Source: an uncultured Eubacteriales bacterium (GTDB lineage: Bacteria; Bacillota; Clostridia; TANB77; UBA1234). From it: DNA of 64,000 nt. Positions 261 through 42,614 of this stretch are shown piece after piece (position 1 is the first letter of the stretch; each line of letters opens with the position of its first letter). Location: positions 28,563 to 92,562 of the forward strand of contig CAYMVI010000004.1 in the NCBI GenBank assembly GCA_964394075.1, written 5' to 3'. The position numbers were made by a program, and so were the translations under genes. Below the pieces are notes generated by a model. That model made no database searches, had not been told where the DNA came from, and saw nothing but the letters and a program-made list of their open reading frames with translations.

Positions 261-1538
261 TTATATTCGTTCTAACACAGCTATGAAAAATCCATCCGCT
301 CCATCTGTATGAGGAAACAAATTAATTTGTTCAATCAATTTAAAGTTGTCATGTATTCTTAAGAACTTCTCAACTTGTTCTTCGTTTTCTTGTTTTAAAA
401 CCGTGCATGTACTATAAACCATTCTTCCACCTGGTTTTAAGTAGTCAGAACATTTTTCTAAAATTTCCATTTGAATCTTTTGTAATTCTGCTATATCTTC
501 TGGTTTTCTTGTCCATTTAATATCTGGTTTCTTTCTGATAACGCCTAACCCACTGCAAGGAACATCTAACAATATCTTGTCATATCGTTTCATAAGTCCT
601 GCAGAATATGTTGTAGCATCTTTCACAGTTGCATTAATAATATTTATATCTAATTTTTTAGCAGCAGCTTCTACTAGTCTAACTCTGTGCGGATGTAAAT
701 CCCACGCATCGATATTACCAGTATTGTTCATAAGTTCTGCTAAATATGTAGTTTTTCCGCCAGGTGCACTACATGCATCTAAAACTTCATCTCCTGGTTT
801 AGGATCAAGTTTTAAACATGCAAGTTGTGCCGCTTCATCTTGTACAGAAAATAAAGTGTTGCCAAACTCAGTAAGCTTTCTTACCTTTATGCTATCCTTT
901 AATTTTCCTTTTTTACAATCAATATTTTTAAGAGACAATAATTTGAAAAGTTCATCTCGAGAAGTCTTTAAAGTATTAGCTCTTATCGTTATTTCTGGTG
1001 TTATATTATTTGCATTTAAAAGTTCTGTTACGAATTTTTTATCATATTGTTTTAACAATTCCTCAACTAACCATACAGGATGTGAAGTAACTATTGAAAT
1101 TAACTCTTCTTCTGTAAGTGGCTTTGTTGCTAAGTGTTCAAGTAATTTATCCATCTCATCTTTAGATATTTTTCTTAAGATTGCATTTACAAACTTACTT
1201 GAAACTTCATGACCATATTTTTTAGCAAGGTTAACACTTTCGTTTACTGCTGCACTTTCTGGAATTTTGTCCAAGAATACAATTTGATATATTCCTGTTC
1301 TTAATATGTTTAATATCCATGGTGAAATTTTCTTTAATCTTATACTTGAATACTTTTTTATAATTTCATCCAATGTTATTTTCCAAGTAAGTACACCATA
1401 AACAATTTCAGAAGCGAGTGCTTTATCTAAAGCACTCAACTCTGATTTGTTTAATTCTTTATCTAATTCAACATTTGAATAACCTTCGCCAAATTCAACT
1501 TTGTATAAAACATTTATTGCTAATTCTCTTGAATTCAT
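261..1538 (-). CDS. rsmB: 16S rRNA m5C967 methyltransferase RsmB (Sun family)
   Basis: NusB-like N-terminus plus SAM-MTase motifs (DACSAPGGKT, PCSGLG) in 425-aa ORF. Confidence 0.85.
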   Translation of the reverse strand: MNSRELAINVLYKVEFGEGYSNVELDKELNKSELSALDKALASEIVYGVLTWKITLDEIIKKYSSIRLKKISPWILNILRTGIYQIVFLDKIPESAAVNESVNLAKKYGHEVSSKFVNAILRKISKDEMDKLLEHLATKPLTEEELISIVTSHPVWLVEELLKQYDKKFVTELLNANNITPEITIRANTLKTSRDELFKLLSLKNIDCKKGKLKDSIKVRKLTEFGNTLFSVQDEAAQLACLKLDPKPGDEVLDACSAPGGKTTYLAELMNNTGNIDAWDLHPHRVRLVEAAAKKLDINIINATVKDATTYSAGLMKRYDKILLDVPCSGLGVIRKKPDIKWTRKPEDIAELQKIQMEILEKCSDYLKPGGRMVYSTCTVLKQENEEQVEKFLRIHDNFKLIEQINLFPHTDGADGFFIAVLERI

Positions 1539-14444: not shown

Positions 14445-15158
14445 CTATGATAAAACTACAAGAGCATTAAGTTTGTCATTTACTTTTAATGCCACTATTT
14501 CTTTTCCCTCTTCATTTTTATAATATACATGCACATCTTCTCCGTACATTATTTCCTTTTTAAACTCTATCAATACATTATCAAAATTATTAATGCTTTC
14601 ATCAAAGTTAGGTATAATTTCAAACGCTACATCTAAGTAATTTGAATTATGAAAATGTCCATTAACATCTATGTCTGACTCTTTTATTTGATATTGTTTT
14701 TCTAATGTATATTCACCCGGTTCTCTCACTCTTGGCAGCTCTTCTCCAAAAGCATTTCTATCTTCAGGTTGATACGCATTTGAAAGTTCATCATCAAATC
14801 TTACAGGACGTCTTGTTTCTAAGTTTATTAGACACCATTTTGAAGATGCAACAATTATTTTTTCGTTATCTGAATTATACACTTCAAAATCTCTAACCGA
14901 TGTTATTCCATCAGATTTTCTAACCCATGTTTTTACTAAAATTTCATCATCAAGTTTTGGTCTTTTTATAAAATTAATTCTCCAAGTTAATAATACCCAA
15001 GATAATTTTTTTGCCATCAATGCATCTGCACCATTGCCAATCATATCAGAATGTATGCCACCCATTTCAGTAAGCATCTCAAATAGTTCTTGTGTTCTAA
15101 ATTCTTGAGCTCCATTTACTTGTTGTTCATTTATAATATATTTCTTTTCTACTATCAT
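14445..15158 (-). CDS. Acyl-ACP thioesterase (FatA/FatB family)
   Basis: 237 aa, double hot-dog thioesterase pattern (…WVRKSDGITSVRDFEV…NGHFHNSNY). Confidence 0.7.
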   Translation of the reverse strand: MIVEKKYIINEQQVNGAQEFRTQELFEMLTEMGGIHSDMIGNGADALMAKKLSWVLLTWRINFIKRPKLDDEILVKTWVRKSDGITSVRDFEVYNSDNEKIIVASSKWCLINLETRRPVRFDDELSNAYQPEDRNAFGEELPRVREPGEYTLEKQYQIKESDIDVNGHFHNSNYLDVAFEIIPNFDESINNFDNVLIEFKKEIMYGEDVHVYYKNEEGKEIVALKVNDKLNALVVLS

Positions 15159-15229
15159 ACTCCACCTCTCAAACGAGCTGATTATAGCATACTTTACTCT
15201 ATTTTGGCAATTTTAACGAAAGTTTCACA

Positions 15230-16705
15230 TTATAAAATTATACAGATTAACCCTCCACTTCCCTCATTAATAATTTTTTCAAGTGTTTCTTGTAACTTAC
15301 ATTGTGCATCCTCAGGCATTTTCGCAAGTTTAGTTTGTAATCCTTCATTTACTAATTCATGTAGTGATTTTCCAAAAATATTTGACTCCCAAATTTTTAT
15401 AGGATCATCTTCAAATTCTTTCAGTAAATAGTTGACCAATTCTTCTGATTGTTTTTCACTACCTACTATCGGAGAAACTTCTGTTTCAATTTCAGCTCTT
15501 ACTATGTGCAAGCTTGGAGCTTTTGCTTTTAATTTAACTCCAAACTTTGAACCTTGTTTTACTATTTCTGGCTCTGCCAAGCTCAAATCTTCTATATCCG
15601 GAGATACAATTCCATATCCTTTTCTTTTAACATCGTTTAATGCTTTTTCTATTTTGTCATAACTTTTTTTACTTTGAGAAAGATTAGTTACAACAGAAAA
15701 TAGATCTCCTTCTTCTTCAACTTTTATTCCAGAAAGTTCGCTTAGAATTTTATAAAATAATTCTTGATTAATTTTTACATCAACACTTGTGTTTCCTGTA
15801 CCCATTGAAATCGCTTCGACACTAACATTTTCAAACTCATCTGGATATTCCAAATTATCTACTACGTTTCTCACCTGTCTTAAATTTTTTATAGATTTAA
15901 AATTATTCTTTGCAAAATTTCTAATTTTTTCTTTCAGCCAATATTCATCTTCCAAAGCATCTATCCACTTTGGTAATTTAAATGTGATTTCATTTATAGG
16001 AAACTCATATAACACATTTTCTATAATAGTATTAATATCATTTTCAGAAAGCATTGCACAATTTATTGGCAATATAGGCACATCATATTTTTGATTTAAT
16101 TCATTCGTTAAATTTATTGCATTTTCAGAATACGGATTATCTGTATTTAAAATTACCACGAATGGTTTGCCTTGATTTTTCAACTCATTAATCACGCGTT
16201 CTTCTGCTCGTAAATAATCATTTCTCCCAAACTCCGTAACACTTCCATCTGTTGTTACTACAACTCCAATTGTAGAATGTTCATCGATTACTTTTTTAGT
16301 TCCTATTTCAGCTGCTTCCGCAAATGGAATTTGTCTTTCGGACCAAGGCGTATTCACCATTCGTGGCGCATCATCTTCCATATGACCAATTGCATTTTCT
16401 GTTAAATACCCCACGCAGTCTATCATTCTCATGTTAAATTTTAAATTGCCAATCGAAACTTCCACAGCTTCATTAGGAACAAATTTAGGTTCTGTTGTCA
16501 TTATTGTTTTTCCATTTGAACTTTGCGGCAATTCATCCAGAGCTCTTTCTTTTTTGTGTTCATCCTTGATATTTGGTATCACCGCCATATTCATAAAGTT
16601 TTTTATAAAAGTAGATTTTCCTGTACGCACCGGGCCAACCACTCCTATATATATTTCGCCATTCGTCCTTGTAGCAATGTCGCCGTATATATCATAATTA
16701 TTCAT
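15230..16705 (-). CDS. spoIVA: Stage IV sporulation protein A (spore coat morphogenetic ATPase)
   Basis: N-terminus ...GEIYIGVVGPVRTGKSTFIKNFM... resembles the SpoIVA Walker A region; 491 aa. Confidence 0.9.
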   Translation of the reverse strand: MNNYDIYGDIATRTNGEIYIGVVGPVRTGKSTFIKNFMNMAVIPNIKDEHKKERALDELPQSSNGKTIMTTEPKFVPNEAVEVSIGNLKFNMRMIDCVGYLTENAIGHMEDDAPRMVNTPWSERQIPFAEAAEIGTKKVIDEHSTIGVVVTTDGSVTEFGRNDYLRAEERVINELKNQGKPFVVILNTDNPYSENAINLTNELNQKYDVPILPINCAMLSENDINTIIENVLYEFPINEITFKLPKWIDALEDEYWLKEKIRNFAKNNFKSIKNLRQVRNVVDNLEYPDEFENVSVEAISMGTGNTSVDVKINQELFYKILSELSGIKVEEEGDLFSVVTNLSQSKKSYDKIEKALNDVKRKGYGIVSPDIEDLSLAEPEIVKQGSKFGVKLKAKAPSLHIVRAEIETEVSPIVGSEKQSEELVNYLLKEFEDDPIKIWESNIFGKSLHELVNEGLQTKLAKMPEDAQCKLQETLEKIINEGSGGLICIIL

Positions 16706-16782
16706 ACACTACCTCCTTGTACTCTCTGTACACATTTGTTTAGTTAAATATATGTACGAGCAAAAGGATTATTCCATCAAAA

Positions 16783-16822
16783 CACAAAAGACGGGATGAA
16801 CCTTAAGTTCATTCCCGTCTTT
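16783..16822 (-). terminator. Intrinsic terminator after small lipoprotein gene
   Basis: GACGGGATGAAC-CTTAA-GTTCAT(T)CCCGTC hairpin followed by T-run on minus strand. Confidence 0.6.
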
Positions 16823-16839
16823 GCATCAACAGATATGCA

Positions 16840-17192
16840 TTATCCCGGCAAAAGAAGTTCCTTCTTTACCAGTTCGCGATCTTCATTGTAACCGCGGTAC
16901 AGAATTACTGTAATAGTATCGCCTTCCGAAACATTCTCATATAACGCTTGATTATTAAAGGTTTGTGCCATGTCTTCGTATACAATTGTGACATTATACT
17001 GGGCTGGATGAAACTGAGGTGACATCATAGTTACCTTGCCGACGCGCATAGGAATATATGTGGTATAACTGCTCTTATATTCTTTTTCCGTCACGGTGGC
17101 AGTCACTTCAAAAGTTTCCTCTTCTACGATTTTTTGACATCCTGCCAAAAGGATACACAAGATGATGGTTGATACTAAAATTATCCGTTTCA
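16840..17192 (-). CDS. Small lipoprotein, unknown function (GC-enriched gene)
   Basis: MKRIILVSTIILCILLAGC lipobox signal; strong RBS GGAGGA; about 40% GC by eye vs ~30% flanks. Confidence 0.65.
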
Positions 17193-17316
17193 TTTTTTCC
17201 TCCTCAAATTTAGTTGGTGGATAGACGTACAGAGATATTGCCAAGAATATTTTACACTTGTTTACATAAAAAATCAAGTGGTATTAGCACTACAACCCTA
17301 CATTTTATCTATACAA

Positions 17317-17343
17317 AAAAGCCTCACAAAAGTGAGGCTTTTA
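17317..17343 (-). terminator. Bidirectional intrinsic terminator (downstream of GT4 gene)
   Basis: AAAAGCCTCAC-AAAA-GTGAGGCTTTT. Confidence 0.7.
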
Positions 17344-17347
17344 ATAA

Positions 17348-18688
17348 TTAAGATTGTTTAGCTAATTTTTGTCTTACCGGATTGTGTAAAGCTTGAATTT
17401 CTTTATCTGTTGTACCAGTAGTAATTGTTGTATCTCTTCCGTTTACTTCTACTGCTGTGCCCATGCTTTCTGCTGTAGCAAGTGAAGAAAGTTTTACCTT
17501 GTTCTTTGCATCAGATTTAGCCATAGCAATAGTTTTCTTATATACATCCATTGTCTTTTTACTGATTGTCTCCCAGTTGAATTCGCTTACAACTTTTTCG
17601 TGAGCTTTCTTTGACATTCTCTCGCAAAGTTTTTCATCGAATAAACATTCTAGAATTGAGTCAGCTAATGAATTTGGATTACCAGCATAAGATTTCATTC
17701 CATCGATACCATGAGATATAATTTCGTTTAATCCACCTGTATCTGAAACTACTGTAGCAGCTCCTGCAAGCATACCTTCTAATGCAACAATTCCGAATGG
17801 CTCATATAAGCTTGGGAATGTAGCAATATCTATAGCTTTATACATCTTTGTTATTTGAACATCATTCAAATAACCTGTGAAGTATACTTTACTGTCTAAA
17901 CCTAAATAACTTGTTAATCCCTTTAATTCATCTAGGCAAGGTCCACGACCAGCAATTACAAATTTAACATTTGGATAATTTGCTAAAATCTTTGGTGCTG
18001 CATTTAACAACACTTGGATTCCTTTTTCATTAACAATTCTGCCTGCGAAGAATATGATTTTTTCATAATCAGCAGCATAGTTTCTTCTAAAATCCCAATC
18101 TCTTTCTTTTCCTTCGAATTTGTTAACATTAATACCATTTGGTACTACGAAAACATTTTCAGATGGTTTTCCGAACAAGTTTTTAATTTCGTTTTTCATA
18201 AACATACTGTTACAAATTACATTTGAAGCTTCGTATGTTAACATCCATTCAACATCATTTACATATCCTTGTGAACTGTTGTGGATACCTCTATTTCTAC
18301 CACTCTCTGTGGCATGAATTGTAGCAACTAATGGTAATTTATAAGTTTTCTTAATTGCTCTTGCAGCATAAGCAACAAGCCAATCATGAGCATGTACTAT
18401 ATTAAATTTTCCGTACTCTTTAATAACATCTGCAGCTTTTTCGACCATGCAGAAATTAAGTTGCATTACCCAATCGATAAAGTTATTTGCATTGATAGGA
18501 TAATTTGTAACTCTATGTACAAATACTTCTCCATCTTTTTCAAATTCTTTAGTATCTCCTTCTTGGTATGTGATTACATGAACTTCATGACCTTGTTTTG
18601 CAAAAGTATGTGATAAATCATGAACTACTCTCGCAATACCTCCAACAATTCTTGGTGGGTACTCCCATGAAAGCATCATTATTTTCAT
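17348..18688 (-). CDS. GT4/GT5-type glycosyltransferase, putative alpha-glucan (glycogen) synthase, with ~60-aa C-terminal extension
   Basis: MKIMMLSWEYPPRIVGGIARVV N-terminus typical of retaining GT-B glycosyltransferases; located in alpha-glucan locus. Confidence 0.55.
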   Translation of the reverse strand: MKIMMLSWEYPPRIVGGIARVVHDLSHTFAKQGHEVHVITYQEGDTKEFEKDGEVFVHRVTNYPINANNFIDWVMQLNFCMVEKAADVIKEYGKFNIVHAHDWLVAYAARAIKKTYKLPLVATIHATESGRNRGIHNSSQGYVNDVEWMLTYEASNVICNSMFMKNEIKNLFGKPSENVFVVPNGINVNKFEGKERDWDFRRNYAADYEKIIFFAGRIVNEKGIQVLLNAAPKILANYPNVKFVIAGRGPCLDELKGLTSYLGLDSKVYFTGYLNDVQITKMYKAIDIATFPSLYEPFGIVALEGMLAGAATVVSDTGGLNEIISHGIDGMKSYAGNPNSLADSILECLFDEKLCERMSKKAHEKVVSEFNWETISKKTMDVYKKTIAMAKSDAKNKVKLSSLATAESMGTAVEVNGRDTTITTGTTDKEIQALHNPVRQKLAKQS

Positions 18689-21250: not shown

Positions 21251-24200
21251 TTATTTCATTCCTGTTAATTCTTTGAATACTTTCAATTGCATTTTTCTTT
21301 CTTTGCCATCTGGTATTCTATTTATTTCTGTAATTAGTCCGTTTATTTGTTGCTGATTCAAAAGAAGTAATGTTGCTTCTAACTCATTATATTGCGCAAG
21401 TGATAACGATGCATGTTTTGAAAGTAAGCGTAAAGCTTGTTTTGGTAATAAGTTTGTAACCATAATTACAACTTCACTATCCATTTCAGCTCTGCTTGCA
21501 GGACTATCAAAATAATTATCTTTTGCAACACTTCTTGCCCTATAATAATTATCTAACATTACGCTTTCATAAATTAAGATAATTCTTAATTTTCTTAAGT
21601 CCGTATTCGGAAGCGAATGTCCGCCTGATGCATCTTTTACAATTTCAAGTCCTTGCTTATTTTTACCACGCATTATAATATAGTTTGCCTCTTCTTGTGT
21701 CGTTACTTTATTATCAACAAAGTAATCCGCAAATAATACTGCTTTTCTTTGATCCAAGAAATAGAAATCTTTATCATCCATTTCTGAATTTGTAATAGCT
21801 TCAAAGATTTTCAAAATCTTATTACCGGTTCTGTCTTCAGCAATAATCTCTTTCAAACCTTCTTCAACTAATTGTTTTTCTTTTCTGATAACAGTGCTTA
21901 ACTTCTCAGCCAAACCATACTCTTCCATAGAACCTTCCCATCTTAAAGCTTCTCTCAAGTAAGTAACGATTTCTGTATTGTAATCGTTTAGCTGATTAAT
22001 AGTTACTATTTCATCATTCTTAAGCACAACACTTCTACCTAATGCTTGCAAATATGGATCTGTAAATACAGCTTCTGGTTCTTTTTGAGCTTCTTCCAGA
22101 GCTTTTCTTTCTTTTTCCTCTTCTTCAAGTCTTAACTTCTCTGCTTCTTCAGCCTCAACTTGAGCAACCAAATCAGCATCAATAAACTTCTGTGCATCAG
22201 GATTGAAGTATGCTTTATTCTCTGGTTTCTTTTCGCCAAAATTATCAGCAGTAAAGTATTGTATTACAACATTTTCTATCGGATTTTCATCTACAATGAT
22301 ATCAGAAGGATTGTTGTGTGAATAACGCCATGTATCATTGTTATTATCATAAATCACTTTAATAACTGGCTTTGGTGCAAACCTTGTACCAATTTGCGCT
22401 TTTACAATTACATCATCTTTTAATGTTCTACCATCTGCCGTTTGAAGTTTAATTGTAACGATAGCTTTCTTTTCTTGATATATAACGTTGATAATATTAT
22501 TGATACTTCCAACAGTAAGTTTGATTGGTTCTGTTCTGTTGTATAACCATCTTCTGTTTTGTTCGTCAACAAATTCTCTTTCAACCTCAGGCACAAATTC
22601 ACTACCTACTTCTAAGTTAAGTAGATCCGTCTTCTTGATAGTATTTCCTTCAGTATCTTTATAACGTACAGAGATTTCAGCTTTGGCAACCTCATACGTC
22701 ATAATGATTTCATTTTCTCTATTATCTTCTTTTACTGTAATCGGATCTATCTTATCATTTAAAAGTTGCCACTGAATTCCGTTTCTGTCAGTAACAAATC
22801 TAATAGGATCCTGTCTATAAACAGTTCCAACAGGCATATCTATTTCCATATCATCTTTTAATTTATTACCATCGATATCTTGGAATGATACTTTTACTTT
22901 TGTAACAAGTGATTCATAAGTTAAGTCAAAGAAGTTTATAACCTGATTGCTGCCTAGTGGCACTTCTTTTACTTTTATTGTTTGTGGCTCACATTTTACA
23001 AATTTATATTGTTTAGATTCTTCATCCGAAATTCTTTGATCTATATCAGGTTTAAATGTACTACCCAATTGTGCTTTAACAATCTTGTCTTTCATAATTG
23101 AGTTACCATTCTTTGTAATAAATCTCAAGTTAACATTTACCTTCAACGGAATATACAAGAATTCGATTACATTATTTTTATCTTCTTCATTAACAAGAAT
23201 TTCTTCTTTATTAGCAGCTTTAAACTCCCAAACGCGTCCATCTGAACCTTCAATAACGTTATCAGGTGATATTTTGTGAGCACTACCAATTTGAGCAAGA
23301 ACTTTCTTTGGTTCTTTCAACTTATTGTTGTCTTGATCTTTATATTGATATATAACAAAAGCTTTTTCTTGTTCATAAGCAAGTACAACAACGTTTTCTT
23401 TCACGTCTTTACTTACTCTTATTGTTGCTTTACTATTTACGTTATAAGTCCATTTCTTGTTAGCTGCGCCAGAGATTTTTTCAATAATTTCCGGTGTGTA
23501 ATTAGAACCAATTTGCGCTTCATATTGATCGTACTGTTTTATTTCTGCGCCAAGAGGATCTACATATCTTACAACAACTTTATTCATAGACGGTTTGTAA
23601 TAAAGTTTAGTGAAATTCTGATCTAACTTCACAGTAACTGGAAGCGGATCAATCTTTTTGCCACCGCCGAAAAGTTTGTTTTCAATTCTACAATCTGCAA
23701 TCCATTCTCTGCCAAATTCATCTTCAACATACTCTTCAATCTTTGGTAAAAATTCTGTACCAACTTGTACTCTTTCTACCTTAGGTTTTATAATGTCGTT
23801 TTCAGCTGCATCTTTATAGTAGATTGTTACATCCACTATATATTTATCATATAACACACTGATTGTATTTTCGTTTGGCTTTCTTGAGACTTTTAATGGT
23901 TTTAAAGATTCTTGATCTATTAACCATCCCATCTTGTTTTCATCAACAATAACAAGCTGTGCTGTAGGATTAAAAGTGCTACCAATTTGAGCTTTAATTG
24001 TTTTCCATGAAGCAATTTGTTGCAACTCTTTATTAAAGAATTCCATTCTAACTTCTGCCATATCTTTTTTGTATGAAATAATAATGTTATTTTCCTCTTC
24101 ATTTTCAGAAACAACAAGTTTGCTTTCATTAATTTCAGTAAACAACCACGCTTTGCCATCTGGATCAATAAAGTTTTGTTTAACTCTAACTTCCACATTT

Positions 24201-27200
24201 GTTCCAACCTGGTATTTGTTAATAACTTCTGGAGCAATTAAGTCGCCTTCTTCATCAACGTAGCTAATTGTAACTTCTGATAACAATTTTTCATATCTAC
24301 ATGTAATTACATTATCTCCGTCCTTAACTACAAACTCTGGCATACTTGCAGTTTTATATTCCCATTTTGCCCCATCTTTATTTGCAACAACTTTTTGTAT
24401 ATCAAGTTTGTAACGTTTACCAACTTGAATCTTTTCTTCCTTCGCAGTTGTTATTTCTTTATTTTCTTCATCAACATATTTTGTAATAATTTTTCCAAGT
24501 AACGGTTCATAAATATTAACCACTAAATTGCCATCTTCTTTTACAATTTGTGAATCCATATTAGATTTTACAAATTTCCAACCGATACCTTTTGAATCAT
24601 TAAACTTATTTGCTGCCTCAATACGAATTTCTTTTCCTACTTGAATATCTTTTGTAACATCAGGTTTTAATTGCTGTCCATCTTTGTTTTGATATTTCAT
24701 CAAAACTTGTGCTCTGCGCTCTTCATAATTTAATACAATGATGTTTTCTTGTTCATTTTCTTTGGCAATTATATTGATATTTTCATCGCCAATATAATTC
24801 CACTCCCATTTATTTTTATCAATTAATCTTTGTCTAATATTAGGTACATATATTCCACCCAAAGCAACTGTTGTAATAATATCTTCAACAACACTTTTTT
24901 GTGTTTTAACATCGATGTGTTTAACTAATATTTTAGCTTTTACTTCACCATAGATAAATTTAAATTTATTGCCTTGTTCTCTTACTGTCAAAATCTTAGG
25001 TTCAGTATTTTCTAGCATCCAACGTTGCCCATTCATGTCTGTGATTTTATACAGTGTGTTTGTGTCATACTCAGCACCTATTTGCCACGGAAGTTCTTTT
25101 TCTTCTAGAAGTACATTTCCAAAAGCATCATAAAAACTAATTCTAACATTTGTAGTTTCTTTATCATAATAAATTGAAACAACATTTTCTTCTTCATGTT
25201 TTCCAACAACAAGCGTTGGAATTTTAGATTCATCAATAACCCATTTCTTACCGTCTTTTCCAGTAATCTTTTTAATTGGATCATTTTTATATTGAGTACC
25301 TGCTTGCACAACTTGTGTCTTAGACGGAATAAGTTCTCTTGATTCCGCATCAAAATATTTAACTGTTACTTTTGCCATTAAAGGTTCATACTTCAAAGTT
25401 ACTACATTTTCTTGAACATTTTCCGAAATGACAATCGATTTTCCAGCATCAATTAATGTCCAAATTTTACCGAAATTATCTGAGATTTCATTGCGACTAG
25501 CATAGTTGAAAATACCACCAATTTGAGCTTCTTCAAAGACCGCATCTCTAATCGCTCTACCATCTTCCCTTATAAATTTCAATGACGCTTTAGCAAGTCT
25601 TGGCTTGTATACTGCTTGTAAAATATTTTGAGATTCATCGCTATTAACAACAATAGAATCTGTAACAGCATTTCTATATTCCCACTCTTTGCACTCATAG
25701 TCATATAACATTTTTTCAAAATTTACTGAATGTGTTTTTCCTATTTGTACAAAAGAAACCTCTTCATCTACAAGATTATTTCCATTTTCATCAATAACTC
25801 TTGTGATAACTTTTTGTTTTGCTTCATCGTATAGCAAATTAATTTCATTATTTACTCCAGTTTGCACCACAATATAGTCTACAGAAGCTTCTGAATATAG
25901 CCAACCTAATCCATCCATATCTACGATATAAGGAACAGATTGTGCCCTGCACATTTTACCAACCGCACTTTGTATAATTTGTGGCGGTGCTATTTCTTTA
26001 CCATTTTTGTTCAAATATTTTACAACAACATCCGCTCTATCTATGTCATACACCAATATAATTTTATTTCTTTGTTCATCATCTGAAATAACCAATCTCG
26101 ATGGTCTAGCACTTTTTAGTTTCCACTCATCACCTTTTTCATCAGTAAAATGAGCTTTTGATTCCATATCAAAAACAGAACCAACTTGCCAAATCTCAGA
26201 TTTTTCTTCAGTTAAATTTTTACCATCTCTATTAATTATAGAAATGTGCACTCTAGCATATCTTTCGATGTATTTTATCTCTATAATATTTTCTGAAGGA
26301 TCTGTTTGCACTACAAAATTAGCAGGGTTTTCATTTTCAATCAACCACTCTTTTCCTTCACTATCATTAATTATTGGAATAACATCAGGTATATATATAG
26401 TATTTGGGAATAAATTTCCGATTCTATTTTCTTTTAATACTACACCTTTTGAATTAACGTATCTAACAGTTAATGTAGTCGAACCCGGTAACGCATTTGC
26501 ACTCGATGCAATATAACTTGTTGAACCTCCAAAATCACCTTGCGAATTGCCAAAGAAAGAATCTTCTGATTCTTGGTTCGCATTTCCACCAACATTAGTA
26601 CCATTAAACATCACTACTTGTCTTCTATCTGGATTACCTAAAGGTATATAAATATCTACTTCGATATTTGGTACAGGCAAAGAATCTGCGCCACTATAAT
26701 TTACATCTTCGTAAATATATCCTAATAAGTCTGGAATACAACTATCATCAATAATCGTCTCTCTCTTAATAATAACAGCCATTGCATTAACATTAAAATC
26801 AGCAATAGATTGTTTTCTTATAACATTACCTTTTCTATCTGTATATTCTAACTTCGTTCCAATCTTTGTATTGTCTTCCAAGACATTCTCTACCAACTTA
26901 TATTTGTATCTTCTTCCCACATTATCTTCGATTGTTACATATAATCTTTCTTCGAATTCGGCAGGATCAGTTATGATTCTATATCTGTATCTTAGTGGTT
27001 CAAACGTATCTGTTCTAACCTGCAAATTGTTATAAATCAAATCTGTAGACGGACACACAAGTTCAGGATTAAGTTTTAATAATATCTCACGAAGTGCATT
27101 AACATCTAACTCTTGGCTAGATTCAAGTCTAGATCTTCTCAAAATTTCTTTTGCTACATTATCTACTTTTGAATCATCTTCAAAAAGTTCTGAATACATT

Positions 27201-28081
27201 GATTTTTCGGAAGAACGAGTAGCAACAAATATTGCAATTTCTCCTTGTGAACCTCTAGTCTTTTCTGACCAATAATAAGAAATATGATTAAGTGGAAAAT
27301 CTACTCTTGGTGGCAACTCATTTATTTTTACATAAGGATCATTTGTAACAATTCCAGCCGATACATTTTTAGATTTTATTTTTATTTGAACATCACGTTC
27401 AAAAATTTCTAATCTATTCGTTTTTGTGTTTATATATCTTATTGAATATGCATTTAAATTTTCAGCATATTTTGCAGGAGTATCATAATTTCTAATCAAT
27501 GGATTCAAATCATTTACAGCCATATCGTCAATTACGAAATCCGACAATAACATAGTAAGTATATCTCTTACTTTTCTATCATTTAAAACAATCTTTTTAC
27601 TATTCAAGAAAGCTTCATAATAATCTTTTGTTATCGCATCTCTTTCAGGTTTATAAATTTGTTCATAAGTCATGTTGTTATACATGTTCATTGTTTTTTG
27701 TGACGGAACATACTTAACGATTTTTATTTTTCCTTCAGCAGTTACACCAACAATTGCATTTCTTTTAGACAATGTATAATCAGCAGTAGGTATTCTTGTT
27801 TTTACTGCAGACTCTGTTGAAGAAGGCGTAATATCTCCCTCTAAAACAGAACAACCTAACATTTCTTCTCCTATGTTTAAGAAAGTTTGTATTATATCAA
27901 CATTAGGTTCTGAATACTCTTTTATGACAAAAATATTTTCTTCGATTTTACTTTCATCAAGCTGTTCTATTCTATTATCAACAACAGTCAAATCTAATTT
28001 ATCTAACGCTGCATTTATTGACATGCTGTTATATCCTAAAGCAATAAGTTTATCTCTAAGCAGAGTTGCACTTTTTTTCAT
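21251..28081 (-). CDS. Giant (~2276 aa) cytoplasmic tandem-repeat protein: ~500-aa N-terminal region, >=17 consecutive ~85-90-aa beta-rich modules, coiled-coil/acidic linker, ~300-aa C-terminal domain
   Basis: Uninterrupted ORF; likely ATG 28081 (MKKSATLL) preceded by AAGGGGTGAA; no signal peptide/TM; repeat consensus [VI]x[VI]xYxDxxGxx[IL]...Q[VI]G...DxxGxxW...[VI]x.E..EN[VI][VI]..Y. Confidence 0.8.
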   Translation of the reverse strand: MKKSATLLRDKLIALGYNSMSINAALDKLDLTVVDNRIEQLDESKIEENIFVIKEYSEPNVDIIQTFLNIGEEMLGCSVLEGDITPSSTESAVKTRIPTADYTLSKRNAIVGVTAEGKIKIVKYVPSQKTMNMYNNMTYEQIYKPERDAITKDYYEAFLNSKKIVLNDRKVRDILTMLLSDFVIDDMAVNDLNPLIRNYDTPAKYAENLNAYSIRYINTKTNRLEIFERDVQIKIKSKNVSAGIVTNDPYVKINELPPRVDFPLNHISYYWSEKTRGSQGEIAIFVATRSSEKSMYSELFEDDSKVDNVAKEILRRSRLESSQELDVNALREILLKLNPELVCPSTDLIYNNLQVRTDTFEPLRYRYRIITDPAEFEERLYVTIEDNVGRRYKYKLVENVLEDNTKIGTKLEYTDRKGNVIRKQSIADFNVNAMAVIIKRETIIDDSCIPDLLGYIYEDVNYSGADSLPVPNIEVDIYIPLGNPDRRQVVMFNGTNVGGNANQESEDSFFGNSQGDFGGSTSYIASSANALPGSTTLTVRYVNSKGVVLKENRIGNLFPNTIYIPDVIPIINDSEGKEWLIENENPANFVVQTDPSENIIEIKYIERYARVHISIINRDGKNLTEEKSEIWQVGSVFDMESKAHFTDEKGDEWKLKSARPSRLVISDDEQRNKIILVYDIDRADVVVKYLNKNGKEIAPPQIIQSAVGKMCRAQSVPYIVDMDGLGWLYSEASVDYIVVQTGVNNEINLLYDEAKQKVITRVIDENGNNLVDEEVSFVQIGKTHSVNFEKMLYDYECKEWEYRNAVTDSIVVNSDESQNILQAVYKPRLAKASLKFIREDGRAIRDAVFEEAQIGGIFNYASRNEISDNFGKIWTLIDAGKSIVISENVQENVVTLKYEPLMAKVTVKYFDAESRELIPSKTQVVQAGTQYKNDPIKKITGKDGKKWVIDESKIPTLVVGKHEEENVVSIYYDKETTNVRISFYDAFGNVLLEEKELPWQIGAEYDTNTLYKITDMNGQRWMLENTEPKILTVREQGNKFKFIYGEVKAKILVKHIDVKTQKSVVEDIITTVALGGIYVPNIRQRLIDKNKWEWNYIGDENINIIAKENEQENIIVLNYEERRAQVLMKYQNKDGQQLKPDVTKDIQVGKEIRIEAANKFNDSKGIGWKFVKSNMDSQIVKEDGNLVVNIYEPLLGKIITKYVDEENKEITTAKEEKIQVGKRYKLDIQKVVANKDGAKWEYKTASMPEFVVKDGDNVITCRYEKLLSEVTISYVDEEGDLIAPEVINKYQVGTNVEVRVKQNFIDPDGKAWLFTEINESKLVVSENEEENNIIISYKKDMAEVRMEFFNKELQQIASWKTIKAQIGSTFNPTAQLVIVDENKMGWLIDQESLKPLKVSRKPNENTISVLYDKYIVDVTIYYKDAAENDIIKPKVERVQVGTEFLPKIEEYVEDEFGREWIADCRIENKLFGGGKKIDPLPVTVKLDQNFTKLYYKPSMNKVVVRYVDPLGAEIKQYDQYEAQIGSNYTPEIIEKISGAANKKWTYNVNSKATIRVSKDVKENVVVLAYEQEKAFVIYQYKDQDNNKLKEPKKVLAQIGSAHKISPDNVIEGSDGRVWEFKAANKEEILVNEEDKNNVIEFLYIPLKVNVNLRFITKNGNSIMKDKIVKAQLGSTFKPDIDQRISDEESKQYKFVKCEPQTIKVKEVPLGSNQVINFFDLTYESLVTKVKVSFQDIDGNKLKDDMEIDMPVGTVYRQDPIRFVTDRNGIQWQLLNDKIDPITVKEDNRENEIIMTYEVAKAEISVRYKDTEGNTIKKTDLLNLEVGSEFVPEVEREFVDEQNRRWLYNRTEPIKLTVGSINNIINVIYQEKKAIVTIKLQTADGRTLKDDVIVKAQIGTRFAPKPVIKVIYDNNNDTWRYSHNNPSDIIVDENPIENVVIQYFTADNFGEKKPENKAYFNPDAQKFIDADLVAQVEAEEAEKLRLEEEEKERKALEEAQKEPEAVFTDPYLQALGRSVVLKNDEIVTINQLNDYNTEIVTYLREALRWEGSMEEYGLAEKLSTVIRKEKQLVEEGLKEIIAEDRTGNKILKIFEAITNSEMDDKDFYFLDQRKAVLFADYFVDNKVTTQEEANYIIMRGKNKQGLEIVKDASGGHSLPNTDLRKLRIILIYESVMLDNYYRARSVAKDNYFDSPASRAEMDSEVVIMVTNLLPKQALRLLSKHASLSLAQYNELEATLLLLNQQQINGLITEINRIPDGKERKMQLKVFKELTGMK

Positions 28082-28224
28082 TTGTTCACCCCTTGATTTA
28101 AAATCAATTACGCACATAATAATACAAATAATATTATATCTTAATGAGTATTTTTTTCAATACTTTTACTTATACTAATTAAAAATTTCAATCAAACTTT
28201 TTTGAGTTTTTCGAAAGGATTTTT

Positions 28225-28764
28225 ATGCAACCAAAATTTTTAATTTTAAAATTTTATTCTAAGGATTTGTTTAATCTATTTTCAAAAAAAATTTCAGAAT
28301 ATCCACACATAATTTTTTCTTCAAAAAAATTTAATGGAACTTATAACGTGATTGTAAAAACGAATAAATATTTCGAATCTGTTTTTCAAGATGATTACGA
28401 CAACAAATTTTATACATCCTATATTTACCTGTACACTAGCATTTCCATAGTTTTATCAGAATTTATAATCGATAATTTTGAACTAAAATTAGCACATCAA
28501 ATTCTTTCCACAAAATATAAATATTTGAGTCCATATTCAAAAAATAAATTAAAAAACATTTTACACTTTGTTTTAGATTCAAATTACCCAAGTGCATCTT
28601 CTAAAAATTTATTTTTGTATCGAAAAGATTTAATACTTAGAAAATTACTTTTGAATTTTAGAAGAGCAAATTATTTGTATGTTGATTACTTTATTTATTT
28701 CAAATTAACCGACTATTATTTACACTTAGAAAATATAATTTCAAAAACATATTTGCGTTATTAA
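28225..28764 (+). CDS. Hypothetical Tyr/Lys-rich protein (179 aa)
   Basis: ORF with AGGA RBS; no recognisable motifs; AT-rich, so coding status moderately uncertain. Confidence 0.4.
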   Translation: MQPKFLILKFYSKDLFNLFSKKISEYPHIIFSSKKFNGTYNVIVKTNKYFESVFQDDYDNKFYTSYIYLYTSISIVLSEFIIDNFELKLAHQILSTKYKYLSPYSKNKLKNILHFVLDSNYPSASSKNLFLYRKDLILRKLLLNFRRANYLYVDYFIYFKLTDYYLHLENIISKTYLRY

Positions 28765-32878: not shown

Positions 32879-32889
32879 CCCCCATCAAT

Positions 32890-32926
32890 AAAGCTCCTCT
32901 TTCGAGGAGCTTTTGTTTGTTTTTTC
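32890..32926 (+). terminator. Intrinsic terminator after pyk
   Basis: AAAGCTCCTC-TTTC-GAGGAGCTTT + T-run. Confidence 0.7.
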
Positions 32927-32996
32927 TAACTTTTTTGTTGACAAAATAATACAATAGTGTTAATATACTAATTGTCGCTTAGACATAGCGACCCAT

Positions 32997-33073
<77 letters not shown>

Positions 33074-33076
33074 TGG

Positions 33077-33110
33077 AACCTCGTAAATCGTTGATTTACG
33101 AGGTTTTTTA
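33077..33110 (+). terminator. Intrinsic terminator after tRNA-Arg
   Basis: AACCTCGTAAATC-GTT-GATTTACGAGGTT + TTTTT. Confidence 0.7.
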
Positions 33111-33124
33111 TTGTTTTGTTGAAT

Positions 33125-33152
33125 TTACATAATACAAAAAGTGTGGTATAAT
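33125..33152 (+). promoter_or_regulatory. sigma-A-type promoter for HD-domain gene (TTACAT-16-TGgTATAAT)
   Basis: -35 TTACAT 33125-33130, extended -10 TGgTATAAT 33144-33152; GGAGG RBS before ATG 33197. Confidence 0.5.
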
Positions 33153-33196
33153 ATTAGTGTTGCAAAAACGCAATTCTGATGACTGGAGGTATAGAT

Positions 33197-34009
33197 ATGA
33201 ACATCAATGTAAGTGCAACACTTTGGCAATTTGCCATCCAGAACACCCCGGAAATTCTGTTTGGCCCACCCGCTAGTAGCGGCATTGGCGCCAAAACCAC
33301 ACACATCCACAACGTCACTCAAATCGGCATGCAGATTCCTCATGATGAGCTAAACGATGGCTTACTCGAGATCTGTCTGCAGCTGCATGACATCGGTCGC
33401 AGCGTCCAGTGGAATATCCAACATTCCTTCAATGACAGGCTCGTTAACCACAGATACATCGCTCTGCAGATGATTGAGCAGTACATCCGTGAAAATAACG
33501 TGACTCTCACTGAGGACTGGAAAATCGTTACCGATGTTATTCAGTATCACGGTGTGGCTCACATGTATCCGCTGGTTGATGCAGCTTCTCTTCCCTATGT
33601 CAAGATCGTTTCTCAGGCAGACGACATTGAAAACGGCTGTCTTGGCGCTCTTGGCTACCTGGAAGACGAAAAAACTCGCGATGACAAAGGTTATATCGCA
33701 GCCGCTCCCTACCAGGATCAAGGATACTGCAAGCCCGAACTGCTTGGCTATCTCGAAAGAGGTGAAAAGTTCAACAAGATGGAGCTCTGCAAAACTTATG
33801 CAGAATACTTTGTCTTCGCTGCTATGCTGGCTGTCAATGCCTGCATTCACCACGGCGATATCGCCAAGAAGGCTATGACCACTCTGTGCTACACCGACAG
33901 CGAGGGACAGTACGATGCAGTCGATGGATACTGCAGAATTTTCCGCAAGCATCTTCACCCTGAGGATGCTGAAAAAGCCTGTGCTATCATGATTAAAATG
34001 TGCAGGTAA
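33197..34009 (+). CDS. HD-domain metal-dependent phosphohydrolase (GC-rich, likely horizontally acquired)
   Basis: H...HD...H...D motif series (HIHN, LQLHDIGR, SQADDIEN); about 50% GC vs ~30% flanks; own promoter and terminator. Confidence 0.7.
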   Translation: MNINVSATLWQFAIQNTPEILFGPPASSGIGAKTTHIHNVTQIGMQIPHDELNDGLLEICLQLHDIGRSVQWNIQHSFNDRLVNHRYIALQMIEQYIRENNVTLTEDWKIVTDVIQYHGVAHMYPLVDAASLPYVKIVSQADDIENGCLGALGYLEDEKTRDDKGYIAAAPYQDQGYCKPELLGYLERGEKFNKMELCKTYAEYFVFAAMLAVNACIHHGDIAKKAMTTLCYTDSEGQYDAVDGYCRIFRKHLHPEDAEKACAIMIKMCR

Positions 34010-34015
34010 GCGTAC

Positions 34016-34050
34016 AACGCAAAAAGAACCGCCCCACAAAGGCGGTTCTT
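34016..34050. terminator. Bidirectional terminator (HD gene / spoIIE)
   Basis: AAGAACCGCC-CCACAAA-GGCGGTTCTT with T-runs on both strands. Confidence 0.7.
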
Positions 34051-34056
34051 TACTTT

Positions 34057-36174
34057 TTATATTACTTTTGCAACTATGACTGTCATATCATCTTTTGCAA
34101 TCCCAAAATTTGAATCAATTGTTTCTTGTAAAATAATATCTGCCAATCTTTGTGGCGTTATATTTTTTACTGTTAATAACAGTTTCTTCATTGTTTCTAT
34201 TTGATTTTCTTGCATTCCATCGATAATACCATCAGAAACCATAACAATTAAATCATCACGTTTTAACAATCTTGTCTTTGTTTCAATTTCAATATCTCCC
34301 AAAATTCCAGCAGGCAATGAGTTTGATTCTACTGTTAAGAATTGGCCATCTCTTGTACTTATAAAAGTTGGACAAGCTCCTATCTTTATAAATTCAGTAA
34401 GACCAACCAACGGATCAAAAATCATCGCATCTATTGTTGCAAAATTGTCTGGATTTTTTCCAACAAGCATATATGAGTTAATCATTTTAATTGCTCTATC
34501 TTCTTCAAAACCAGTATTCAAAAGTTTCTCTAAATTCAAAACAACTTTCTTACTATTTCGTGCAGCAACTTCTCCAGAACCCATACCGTCACTAATTGCA
34601 ACTAATATTTTTCCATCCTTTAATTTTATAACTGTATTGCTATCACCAGAAATTATACTATTTGACTTCTTTGCTTTTGCAATACCTAGTTCCAAAGTAT
34701 GTATTTCATTTGCAGCTGGATCTTCAACGCTTTCTTTATTTAAATTTCCTTTGATATTGTTTTTCATTTTATCAATCTCTTGAGAAACTTCTTTTAATTG
34801 CATTGCCATTTGAATACGTTGTTCTTTTACTTTTGCTTGCCACTCTTTGTTAACTTTGTATATTTCAAAGCACAAATTTAAACCTTCTGCAAACAAAGCT
34901 TTTTGAGTACAAATCGAATCTTTCAAATCTCTTTCTGTAATCACATTATTGCCTTGCAGTTTTTCTATCGCATTAAATGTTTCTTCATACATTTTATGAT
35001 AATTTTCTTTCCAACATTTATCATAATTTTGACAACGCTTACATGTATTTTCATTAAGAGTTTTTATAAAACTTCCTATTTGATCTGTTGGAACATCATC
35101 TCTATTAGCAGAAACATTATCCGCCATATCATTGATTACTTCGCTTACTGCAGACAATTTAAATATAGTATTTTCTTCTATATATCCTGCAACACCTTCG
35201 CCAGGCAAAGCTCTGTTGTAATCAAACAAATCATCTAATATAACTAATAATTTTTTTGGAATTAAGAACAACACAAGTGATGCTAAAACTATCTCTTTAA
35301 TACTGATTAAAACTTCTGTAGATCCATTTGCAAAGAAAACTAAAATAATGTTTCCCAAAACAAACCCAATTACTGCTCCCCACTTTCCAAACTTAGAAAG
35401 CATTCCAGCAAGCAATCCACAAAAAGCATAAGTCGCAACAGTCGCTACATTTCCAAAGCCCATAAGCCCCATAGAAAGTGAAATTATTAAACCACTTGTT
35501 GCTCCAATTGAACTTCCTAATTTCCAACCTAATACCATAACGCTTAGGATACTTATAGTTCCTCTTAACGTAATTCCAGCAATACCCACACTACCAAAAC
35601 TACTTACCAATATCGAAACTATAACACCCATGCATATCAAACTTTCAGTCGAATAAATCTTAGCTTTATCAATGTTGTATAACACAGGAAGTCCTTCACA
35701 AAACATTAAATAAAATATTCCGACCATGATACTGTTATAGACTGCAAATAACGCATCATATAACAACAATCCATTAATCGATAATCCCACAATTTCTGAA
35801 ATCAAAGTGGAGAAAAGTATGATTCCTGTATTAGAAATTTTCGTATTCTCCAGCTTCAAAAACGACTTAATTGCAACGTATAATATTCCAGCGATAAGAA
35901 ACTTAACCAAAGCAATATTTCCAAAAAATACGCCCGTTATTATCGCTATAATTAAGAATGGAATTATCAGCGGAACATTGATTGTATTTATCGCCGCAAA
36001 CATTGCTATTCCAAAAGGAGTCGCTCCAGAAATTAACTTTGAAGAAGCCATAAAGGCACATAAAAAATAAATTAATATGTCCTTTACGCTTCCTAATATT
36101 TTTTTTACATTAATCTTGCTTTTGATGTCATCAAAGTTTTCAAAATTAATTTTATCTTTAAACATTTGAACCAC
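34057..36174 (-). CDS. spoIIE: Stage II sporulation protein E (membrane PP2C phosphatase)
   Basis: ~10 TM segments followed by PP2C domain (VAISDGMGSG...VMVSDGIIDG); 705 aa; GTG start with GAGGTG RBS. Confidence 0.85.
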   Translation of the reverse strand: MVQMFKDKINFENFDDIKSKINVKKILGSVKDILIYFLCAFMASSKLISGATPFGIAMFAAINTINVPLIIPFLIIAIITGVFFGNIALVKFLIAGILYVAIKSFLKLENTKISNTGIILFSTLISEIVGLSINGLLLYDALFAVYNSIMVGIFYLMFCEGLPVLYNIDKAKIYSTESLICMGVIVSILVSSFGSVGIAGITLRGTISILSVMVLGWKLGSSIGATSGLIISLSMGLMGFGNVATVATYAFCGLLAGMLSKFGKWGAVIGFVLGNIILVFFANGSTEVLISIKEIVLASLVLFLIPKKLLVILDDLFDYNRALPGEGVAGYIEENTIFKLSAVSEVINDMADNVSANRDDVPTDQIGSFIKTLNENTCKRCQNYDKCWKENYHKMYEETFNAIEKLQGNNVITERDLKDSICTQKALFAEGLNLCFEIYKVNKEWQAKVKEQRIQMAMQLKEVSQEIDKMKNNIKGNLNKESVEDPAANEIHTLELGIAKAKKSNSIISGDSNTVIKLKDGKILVAISDGMGSGEVAARNSKKVVLNLEKLLNTGFEEDRAIKMINSYMLVGKNPDNFATIDAMIFDPLVGLTEFIKIGACPTFISTRDGQFLTVESNSLPAGILGDIEIETKTRLLKRDDLIVMVSDGIIDGMQENQIETMKKLLLTVKNITPQRLADIILQETIDSNFGIAKDDMTVIVAKVI

Positions 36175-41701: not shown

Positions 41702-41777
41702 TGGTGCACCACCGGGGACTCGAACCCCGGACCCACTGATTAAGAGTCAGTTGCTCTACCAACTGAGCTAGTGGTGC
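41702..41777 (-). tRNA. tRNA-Lys (anticodon CTT)
   Basis: Reverse complement GCACCAC TA GCTCAGTTGGTAGAGC A ACTGA-CTCTTAA-TCAGT GGGTC CGGGG-TTCGAGT-CCCCG GTGGTGC A CCA. Confidence 0.8.
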
Positions 41778-41917: not shown

Positions 41918-42475
41918 TTATTCAGGTCTTTCGATTGCCTTCTGATTTGACAAGATTGTTGCGTTTCCGAAGAACGAAACCTCCAAGGAAAGTACATCAC
42001 CAACACCCACATCAAGCCAAGCTTCCTTCTCGACAGTGTATTTTACCTCTTCACCATCTTGATTTTTGCCGTGAATATAGTGGTTCTTTCTTTCAGAGTC
42101 CACACGCTCATTTTCAGCCAAAGTATACTCCGGAAAATGAGGTTCGTAGTCGTCTCCAGTTTCCGTTACAGTGCGGTCATATTTCCAACGAAGAATCTCG
42201 TAATAATATTTTGTCCGATACTCATAACCGTCGAAGTTGCCTTCATCATCGTACTTTGTCTTGTAAATCTCACGTTTCTTTTTGATAAGTTCTGCCTCAC
42301 TCGGCAAAGACCAACCGCTTTCTTCGCACAGTACCTCTTTCTCGATTTCAACCGAGTATTCCCAGCTAATGCCGGTAACGGTTACTGTTTCCTCGCGAGT
42401 CATACAGCCGGTGCATGCAAAAAGCACCATCAGAACCATGAAAATCACAAAGATCTTCCGCCATACATGACACAT
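41918..42475 (-). CDS. Lipoprotein, unknown function (GC-enriched; N-terminal mature region similar to lipoprotein at 16840-17192)
   Basis: MCHVWRKIFVIFMVLMVLFACTGC signal/lipobox, then ...EETVTVTG...EY as in the other lipoprotein (CQKIVEEETFEVTATVTEKEY); start codon uncertain (ATG ~42475 vs upstream GTG 42547). Confidence 0.55.
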   Translation of the reverse strand: MCHVWRKIFVIFMVLMVLFACTGCMTREETVTVTGISWEYSVEIEKEVLCEESGWSLPSEAELIKKKREIYKTKYDDEGNFDGYEYRTKYYYEILRWKYDRTVTETGDDYEPHFPEYTLAENERVDSERKNHYIHGKNQDGEEVKYTVEKEAWLDVGVGDVLSLEVSFFGNATILSNQKAIERPE

Positions 42476-42614
42476 TTTCAAAGCATATTCCCCCAATCGA
42501 AGTATATATTTGTATTTGCTTTTATCTTCAAGTCCAGATTTTATCACGTTTTTCCACTTTTTTCAAGTTAAAGTTCGCTATTTACAAGCATTTCCGCAAT
42601 TAGGCCCTCGATTT

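Follow-up and report, generated by a model that had tools for sequence, protein, structure and literature searches.

A persistently GC-rich HD-domain gene beside tRNA-Arg is an old resident of AT-rich gut Clostridia

The subject of this analysis is a gene for a predicted hydrolase of the HD superfamily in a 64,000-nucleotide (nt) stretch of contig CAYMVI010000004.1 (GenBank assembly GCA_964394075.1, positions 28,563 to 92,562 of the forward strand) from an uncultured Eubacteriales bacterium. We call this whole stretch the window, and positions refer to it unless another locus is named; loci in other genomes carry L or P numbers. The gene is much richer in guanine plus cytosine (GC) than its surroundings and directly follows a tRNA-Arg(TCT) gene, with ytxC, glgP and pyk further upstream and spoIIE and smc downstream. 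It is a real, single, self-contained and monocistronic gene (Table 1), and the anatomy proposed in an earlier reading of the window, made from the sequence alone (the sequence-only reading), holds throughout: the placement after tRNA-Arg(TCT) and its terminator (ARAGORN, Rfam and the hairpin), the extended -10 promoter (11 of 12 consensus positions matched, with the upstream TG), the GGAGG ribosome-binding site (RBS), read directly in the sequence, and the GC-rich bidirectional terminator. Several of these elements recur elsewhere: the tRNA sequence is identical in L001, L002, L007, L015 and L016 and near-identical in L017, the hairpin after the tRNA is found in L001, L002 and L007, the promoter is conserved in L001 and L002, and a comparable purine-rich RBS precedes every member of the HD family that we examined. 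An alternative ATG at 33179 lacks an RBS, and homologues begin at the position matching the start given in the table.

Table 1. Coordinates of the HD gene, its signals and neighbours in the window, and of a tandem paralogue at a related locus
Feature	Sequence	Position	Strand	Remarks
tRNA-Arg(TCT)	window	32997..33073	+	ARAGORN; Rfam tRNA 65 bits; conserved landmark upstream of the HD gene
Intrinsic terminator of the tRNA gene	window	33075..33107	+	15-pair stem followed by a T-run
Sigma-A-type promoter of the HD gene	window	33124..33152	+	TTTACA, 17 nt, TG-n-TATAAT (extended -10)
Ribosome-binding site GGAGG	window	33185..33189	+	7 nt ahead of the ATG at 33197
Coding sequence of the HD-superfamily hydrolase	window	33197..34009	+	270 amino acids, 30.6 kDa, isoelectric point 5.4
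Bidirectional intrinsic terminator	window	34023..34051		11-pair GC-rich stem, T-runs on both strands; shared with the convergent spoIIE
spoIIE	window	34057..36174	-	convergent with the HD gene; stop 6 nt from the terminator hairpin
Tandem HD paralogue	L007	8809-9798	+	hhalign probability 98.7%, 25% identity; just upstream of the active HD gene at 10001-10840

Base composition sets the gene apart. Its coding sequence (CDS) has 48.3% GC against 32.6% for the whole window and is the most GC-rich 813-nt stretch of the 64 kb, while the flanking genes have 31-36%. The figures in the sequence-only reading, 50-58% for the gene and 25-32% for the flanks, need correction: the span 33114-34050 has 46.9% GC, its highest 300-nt window reaches 51%, and only 100-nt windows reach 56%. 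The foreign-looking composition itself is real. The GC fraction at third codon positions (GC3) is 0.557, compared with a mean of 0.206 (standard deviation, sd, 0.032) in the 41 other open reading frames (ORFs) of the window, a distance of about 11 sd, and the anomaly is far outside chance. The rise is limited to the CDS, the promoter and 5' untranslated region (UTR) having 28% GC. The codons CTC, CTG, GCC, CCC, ACC and GTC, which make up 0-3% of their synonymous families (per amino acid) in host genes, account for 23-44% in the HD gene, and A-ending codons are reduced yet common (AAA 47%, GAA 62%).

Atypical composition beside a tRNA gene is what would be expected of a fresh genomic island, and the sequence-only reading had proposed recent acquisition. 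Orthologues were sought in a scan of one genome per species, which gave L001 (a Clostridia bacterium from sheep rectum, 86% amino acid identity) and L002 (an uncultured Eubacteriales bacterium, 75%), and in a protein index, which gave L007 (60%). The order ytxC-glgP-pyk-tRNA-Arg(TCT)-HD-spoIIE-smc is kept in all three, and in L007 two additional genes separate the tRNA from the active HD gene. Flanking proteins are 95-99% identical to those of the window in L001, 85-91% in L002 and 82-89% in L007, with the exception of ytxC at 64-80%, and the HD tree agrees in topology with the flanking genes. In these genomes the HD gene has a GC content of 0.44-0.49 and a GC3 of 0.45-0.56 among neighbouring genes with GC3 of about 0.2. 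Thus the gene is present at the same locus, and equally GC-rich, in all three other lineages examined in which SpoIIE is at least 82% identical; it is present in L003/L004 too. The sequence-only reading had itself listed such an outcome as grounds against its proposal. No presence/absence polymorphism was seen among the close relatives examined, and the gene is missing only where SpoIIE is 60-67% identical. Because its same-locus orthologues in L001, L002 and L007 are as GC-rich as it is, the gene is not a recent island but an old resident shared by related gut Clostridia.

The locus does resemble tRNA-linked genomic islands in several respects: the gene lies directly 3' of a tRNA, its composition is atypical, and the content of the slot varies among distant relatives. 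These points could favour a recent single-gene island at the tRNA-Arg 3' end, serving in phage defence as an HD nuclease or as a module that degrades nucleotide signals, as could two further observations: the family member L008 has a 1718-aa DEAD/ResIII protein and AAA ATPases in its vicinity, and PADLOC returns a weak match to Cas3b (15.3 bits, E = 0.0013). That match, however, is the sole one and spans only residues 38-119, the generic HD core, and neighbourhoods of the family are mostly housekeeping. Unlike tRNA-linked islands, the locus holds a single gene, and all close relatives examined have kept it. The interval from pyk to spoIIE contains no integrase-like ORF, and the tRNA 3' end, which an attachment (att) site would leave duplicated, is not repeated within 32880-34200; moreover, the compositional step coincides exactly with the CDS and not with an inserted block. 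Relatives of the HD protein are absent from viral contigs, INPHARED phages, PLSDB plasmids, PHROGs and BFVD, and on this ground we rejected a phage or plasmid origin. A mobile cassette with conserved ends was likewise rejected, as the flanking non-coding DNA is unrelated between contexts and no repeats bound the gene. We therefore regard a recent defence island as very unlikely, and the stand-alone defence function suggested earlier finds no meaningful defence-model match, no phage or plasmid relative and no suggestive neighbourhood to uphold it. For the nucleotide-signalling function suggested along with it, the evidence speaks neither for nor against. L011 and L012 place the HD gene in yet another context; directly upstream of it in L011 lies a 280-aa ORF (644-1486, minus strand) that looks transposase-like by eye only.

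The GC excess is not peculiar to the tRNA-Arg locus. We examined 13 distinct loci of the core family, with 35-100% identity to the window protein and in at least seven genomic contexts, and all 13 lie in DNA of 30-39% GC, where the HD gene has 43-51% GC and a GC3 of 0.44-0.62. Since the excess is a property of the whole family across these contexts, it can neither date nor prove an insertion at the window locus. Most family loci have a strong sigma-A-like promoter of their own in otherwise unrelated sequence, although the 130 nt read upstream in L009/L010 show no evident one; an RBS and a terminator are present at every locus, within AT-rich flanks that are again unrelated. Common to the family is a depletion of A at third positions (A3), 0.12-0.24 compared with 0.38-0.42 in host genes, while the shares of C and G differ by lineage. 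Composition has persisted over long divergence: third-position identity falls to about 0.40 between lineages, which is near randomised, and GC3 stays at 0.44-0.62. For example, L018 and L020 share a context in which the HD gene lies upstream of rpiB and a wecA-mnaA fusion, with flanking proteins 70% and 51% identical; their HD proteins are 35% identical, and both genes are GC-rich. Polarised synonymous changes between the window and L001, with L002 as outgroup, number 32 from GC to AT and 26 from AT to GC, where decay towards a GC3 of 0.2 would give a ratio of about 5:1 (p = 7e-7), and five other trios are likewise balanced. One gene that appears to have lost its function has also lost part of its excess. 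In L007 the tandem paralogue, which is separated from tRNA-Arg by an NlpC/P60 gene, has changed its catalytic motifs (HD to YH, ADDIENG to ATEINNG, and QYHG lost) and is likely a pseudo-enzyme on these residues; its GC3 is 0.315 compared with 0.446 in the active copy. This single case is consistent with the composition being held only in the functional gene.

The gene itself was likely gained long ago, because it is missing beside tRNA-Arg and spoIIE in more distant relatives and its nearest outgroup stands at compositional parity with its surroundings. In L015, L016 and L017 (SpoIIE 60-67% identical) tRNA-Arg(TCT) lies beside spoIIE and the HD gene is absent there; in L015 and L016 the slot is occupied by an unrelated ORF of low GC (276 or 327 aa), and in L017 it is empty. 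The pyk side is rearranged in all three, with cotJ genes in its place, and the comparison thus documents a variable slot and not the exact empty site that a clean test would have required. Among the outgroups sampled, the nearest, P0041 (about 40% identity), is found on a contig of 50% GC, where its GC3 of 0.54 is matched by neighbours at 0.54-0.60, which makes a mid-GC origin of the core family plausible. Of the horizontal acquisition at the tRNA that the sequence-only reading had proposed, what stands is an old origin from a mid-GC lineage, as a plausible event, in a slot that varies over deep time; the integrase and the tRNA 3'-end repeat that would tie it to the tRNA are lacking. L015 and L016 have compositional features of their own, in that an NMT1/OmpA-BPD_transp-ABC_tran transporter operon is GC-rich in L015 (about 14500-18163; 0.43-0.52 in a 0.36 contig) and the corresponding operon of L016 is mildly so (about 15500-17500; about 0.40), which again suggests that several blocks of GC-rich genes exist in these low-GC genomes.

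The excess could also have been kept up from outside, if a pool of mid-GC donors had supplied the gene again and again, by transfer or by allelic replacement, without selection in the low-GC genomes. A mid-GC relative at parity does exist (P0041), the family occupies at least seven contexts, the HD protein diverges more than its neighbours, and the codon usage of the HD gene resembles what we take to be that of a typical mid-GC Firmicute. However, none of the 13 core-family loci lies in mid-GC DNA, the sole mid-GC relative found is only about 40% identical, and the flanking UTRs are host-like and lineage-specific. Synteny is kept at 60-86% identity in the window clade and at 35% in L018/L020, and replacement would need repeated hits on the same sites without integration machinery. 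Given this synteny, and since no mid-GC member found exceeds 40% identity, continuing replacement out of a mid-GC pool not yet sampled is the less likely of the two explanations that remain, and we consider it improbable; the other, which we favour, is selection on synonymous composition.

Several candidate causes of the GC excess can be set aside. One is high expression: in a relative, A3 is 0.48-0.51 and C3 0.06-0.10 in the genes for ribosomal proteins. The HD gene shows the reverse pattern, and its codon usage is anti-optimal for its host. Independence from tRNAs with U34, as an escape from anticodon nucleases, was rejected because AAA, GAA and other A-ending codons are common. A structured messenger was rejected as well: the window HD mRNA folds 4-6 sd better than shuffled sequence and HD mRNAs fold 1.8-5.8 sd better than codon-permuted versions, but host control genes (pyk, glgP, spoIIE and smc) give z-scores of -0.4 to -5.9 against synonymous-codon permutations. 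Ordinary genes of this genome exceed their permuted versions in folding stability by 3-6 sd, and such a genome-wide effect would mislead single-gene tests run without controls. The folding of the window mRNA, along with the long antisense ORFs of the window, L001 and L002, could alternatively suggest that the region is no ordinary protein gene but a structured RNA or an antisense ORF (33362-34039, minus strand, 225 aa). Besides the equal z-scores of the controls, this has against it that the antisense reading frames do not stay open in L010 and L011 and are to be expected wherever TTA, CTA and TCA codons are avoided, that synonymous codon entropy stays even from one end of the gene to the other, with one invariant codon only, and that no Rfam family reaches threshold. 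The comparison with L001, the closest orthologue fetched, gives 0.088 nonsynonymous substitutions per site (dN) and 1.39 synonymous ones (dS), with a sense-frame dN/dS of 0.06. An overlapping antisense gene or embedded conserved RNA was rejected on these grounds, and we give the idea almost no credence.

Other genes of the window also depart from its mean composition. The only other strongly GC-rich one encodes a 750-aa DEAH-box helicase (60300-62552, plus strand; GC 0.47, GC3 0.53) with DEAD, Helicase_C and HA2 domains, HrpB/HrpA models being matched well below their cut-offs, and its codon usage is nearly that of the HD gene. A 209-aa ORF (41918-42547, minus strand; GC 0.417, GC3 0.44) adjoins tRNA-Lys(CTT) at 41702-41777 and is thus a second persistently GC-rich gene adjoining a tRNA, its orthologues being enriched too (GC3 0.39 in L001 at 90% identity and 0.43 in L002 at 63%); it has no Pfam match and a marginal one in PHROGs (phrog_902, E = 0.0065). 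At the other extreme, the ytxC-like gene (28225-28764, plus strand) has an exceptionally low GC content of 0.209 (0.24 at first codon positions, GC1) and evolves fast, with 64-80% identity where its neighbours have 85-99%. A giant ORF of 2288 aa (21251-28117, minus strand) consists of many repeats of about 70-80 residues and is probably a surface adhesin; its L007 orthologue carries a faint MucBP annotation.

The protein belongs to the HD superfamily, as the sequence-only reading had it: it is about as long as predicted there, at 270 aa, its Pfam HD match (PF01966) scores 27.8 bits against a cut-off of 22 (E = 3.3e-6), and its H/HD/H/D motif residues are invariant. The same domain is matched by all 23 aligned family members (best E 7e-13), and no other Pfam domain is recognised in the window protein or the aligned family. 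K33, H36, H64, D65, H85, H118 and D142 are invariant in the alignment of 23 sequences, and the protein has the H...HD...D metal-ligand pattern and the all-helical fold of the superfamily: AlphaFold with the family alignment gives a predicted local distance difference test score (pLDDT) of 95.4 and a predicted template modelling score (pTM) of 0.89 for an all-helical structure plus one beta-hairpin. The HD core covers approximately residues 36-146 and is followed by a helical C-terminal part specific to the family. As for the Cys-rich tail noticed earlier, eight of the nine Cys fall in the C-terminal half; in the family alignment C198 and C246 are invariant, and C148 and C269 come close to it. 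When 1.84 billion representatives were searched with a profile, 68 clusters (at 50% identity) fell below an E value of 1e-10 and 31 below 1e-30. Those members that have a name are annotated as hypothetical protein, as 'HD domain-containing protein' or, in a single JGI record, as 'putative nucleotidyltransferase with HDIG domain'. The family is small and uncharacterised, and has so far been met mostly in spore-forming gut Clostridia of low GC for which metagenome assemblies are the only source.

Among HD proteins, a set of six conserved residues in the pattern H...HD...H...H...D is diagnostic of a dinuclear site, YqeK being an example; multi-metal phosphodiesterases have an additional His that forms an HH doublet, and phosphohydrolases carry a basic residue three positions ahead of the first His (PMC8177086). 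The family fits the six-residue rule and the basic-residue rule (K33 precedes H36 by three positions), and the HH doublet is absent. The invariance of H36, H64-D65, H85, H118 and D142, taken with the motif rule, suggests a two-metal site of YqeK type with H85 and H118 as putative metal ligands, and the protein may accordingly be described as a predicted two-metal phosphohydrolase acting on a nucleotide-type substrate.

Taken together, we find it somewhat more probable than its alternatives combined that the gene encodes a soluble, monocistronic HD metallo-hydrolase which was gained long ago, has since been inherited vertically and has stably kept its GC-rich composition. The enzyme would use a metal-activated water to cleave a phosphoanhydride or phosphodiester bond in a small molecule of nucleotide type. 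Its gene would have come, probably from a mid-GC Firmicute, into the variable slot between tRNA-Arg(TCT) and spoIIE, and would since have passed down vertically with the protein under purifying selection; the GC-rich, A3-poor usage would then represent a stable, family-wide state in AT-rich genomes and not the decaying remnant of a recent transfer. Such a stable state across the family implies selection or another gene-specific bias on synonymous composition. Some observations weigh against this account. The HD protein diverges more than its neighbours (86% identity to L001 compared with 95-99%), as allelic replacement by recombination might produce. Parsimony with a saturated outgroup inflates the AT-to-GC counts, a bias visible in the flanking genes, and the balance of synonymous changes is thus supportive but not decisive. 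A more distant member, P0297 (32-34% identity), is fully host-like, at parity with a GC3 of 0.115 in a contig of 28% GC, and GC-richness is evidently not required by the fold. Other GC-rich genes occur in the same genome, and the cause may be general and not specific to this gene. Finally, the ligand roles of H85 and H118 are proposed from invariance and not from inspected coordinates.

The persistent compositional anomaly is the only unusual feature of the gene. Atypical GC beside a tRNA resembled a textbook fresh island, and comparative data turned it into a long-resident gene with stable composition. Should selection on synonymous sites be the source of that stability, the family would offer a clean natural test case against the assumption of amelioration that is used to date and detect horizontal transfer; we found nothing specific in the literature on persistently GC-rich genes in AT-rich genomes. 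It is possible, although we hold it only tentatively, that synonymous composition is itself a selected, heritable trait of the family (GC3 about 0.45-0.6 and A3 about 0.12-0.24, despite a strong promoter and RBS). Its purpose might be to uncouple translation or mRNA fate from the economy of A/U-ending codons and their tRNAs, for example, in starvation or sporulation, and the DEAH helicase and the small ORF beside tRNA-Lys could belong with it to a class of 'amelioration-resistant' genes. On the side of the enzyme, the family adds to the HD superfamily an uncharacterised, structurally confident subfamily of about 30-70 clusters at 50% identity among the 1.84 billion representatives, with a putative two-metal ligand pattern and a new C-terminal part.

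Comparison with known HD systems places the family near, but outside, several of them. The homology and structure check proposed earlier, which was to separate HD-GYP, nuclease and dNTPase-like types, upheld membership of the superfamily and gave negative results for HD-GYP, HDIG, Cas3-type defence proteins and dNTPases. The HDIG model (TIGR00277) scores 12.8 bits against an NCBIfam cut-off of 27.6; no sequence match or strong fold match to dNTP triphosphohydrolases (Dgt/SAMHD1) was found; phmmer and profile searches of PDB chains gave no match, and Foldseek returned only weak HD matches (E > 0.1). Cas3 and Cas3'' are matched only at the generic HD core, and no helicase or CRISPR partner genes adjoin the window gene. 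The cyclic-dinucleotide phosphodiesterases HD-GYP and PgpH differ in that the window protein has no GYP motif, HH doublet, or sensor, receiver or seven-transmembrane (7TM) domain; of the HHExxDGxGYP motif, a regular-expression search finds neither HHE nor GYP, H118 being followed by G119.

The protein could instead be directed at nucleic acids and not at small molecules, as an RNase or DNase like the HD domain of YhaM, RNase Y or Cas3'', in which case its A-poor, GC-rich mRNA might protect itself from an AU-preferring nuclease. The two-metal ligand pattern does occur in Cas3-type nucleases too (PMC8177086), the depletion of A3 is common to the whole family, and the window's second strongly GC-rich gene encodes the RNA-helicase-like DEAH protein. 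However, Pfam recognises HD alone, with no oligonucleotide-binding (OB) fold, KH or other nucleic-acid-binding domain, A-ending codons remain common, and the arguments from the dead paralogue and from self-protection are speculative. We judge a nucleic-acid enzyme unlikely and return to the small-molecule hydrolase. In overall fold the protein is closest to the group of the YhaM HD domain, YpgQ and 2PQ7. YhaM itself, a 3'-5' exonuclease (PDB 9H3F), has an N-terminal OB-fold that the window protein lacks, and identity is 14%. The HD nucleoside triphosphate (NTP) pyrophosphohydrolases of YpgQ / 2PQ7 / 2PJQ type bind one metal through H...HD...D (PMC8177086), to which the window family adds two invariant His, and share 13-15% identity over about 155 residues. 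In ligand pattern the closest system is YqeK, the symmetrical diadenosine tetraphosphate (Ap4A) hydrolase and two-metal HD phosphatase (PDB 2O08/8WMY). The window protein has no sequence similarity to YqeK detectable by phmmer or by profile searches of PDB chains, exceeds it in length by about 80 residues, has a family-specific C-terminal helical part and four conserved Cys, and, unlike YqeK, is not encoded in a nadD-yqeK-rsfS operon context.
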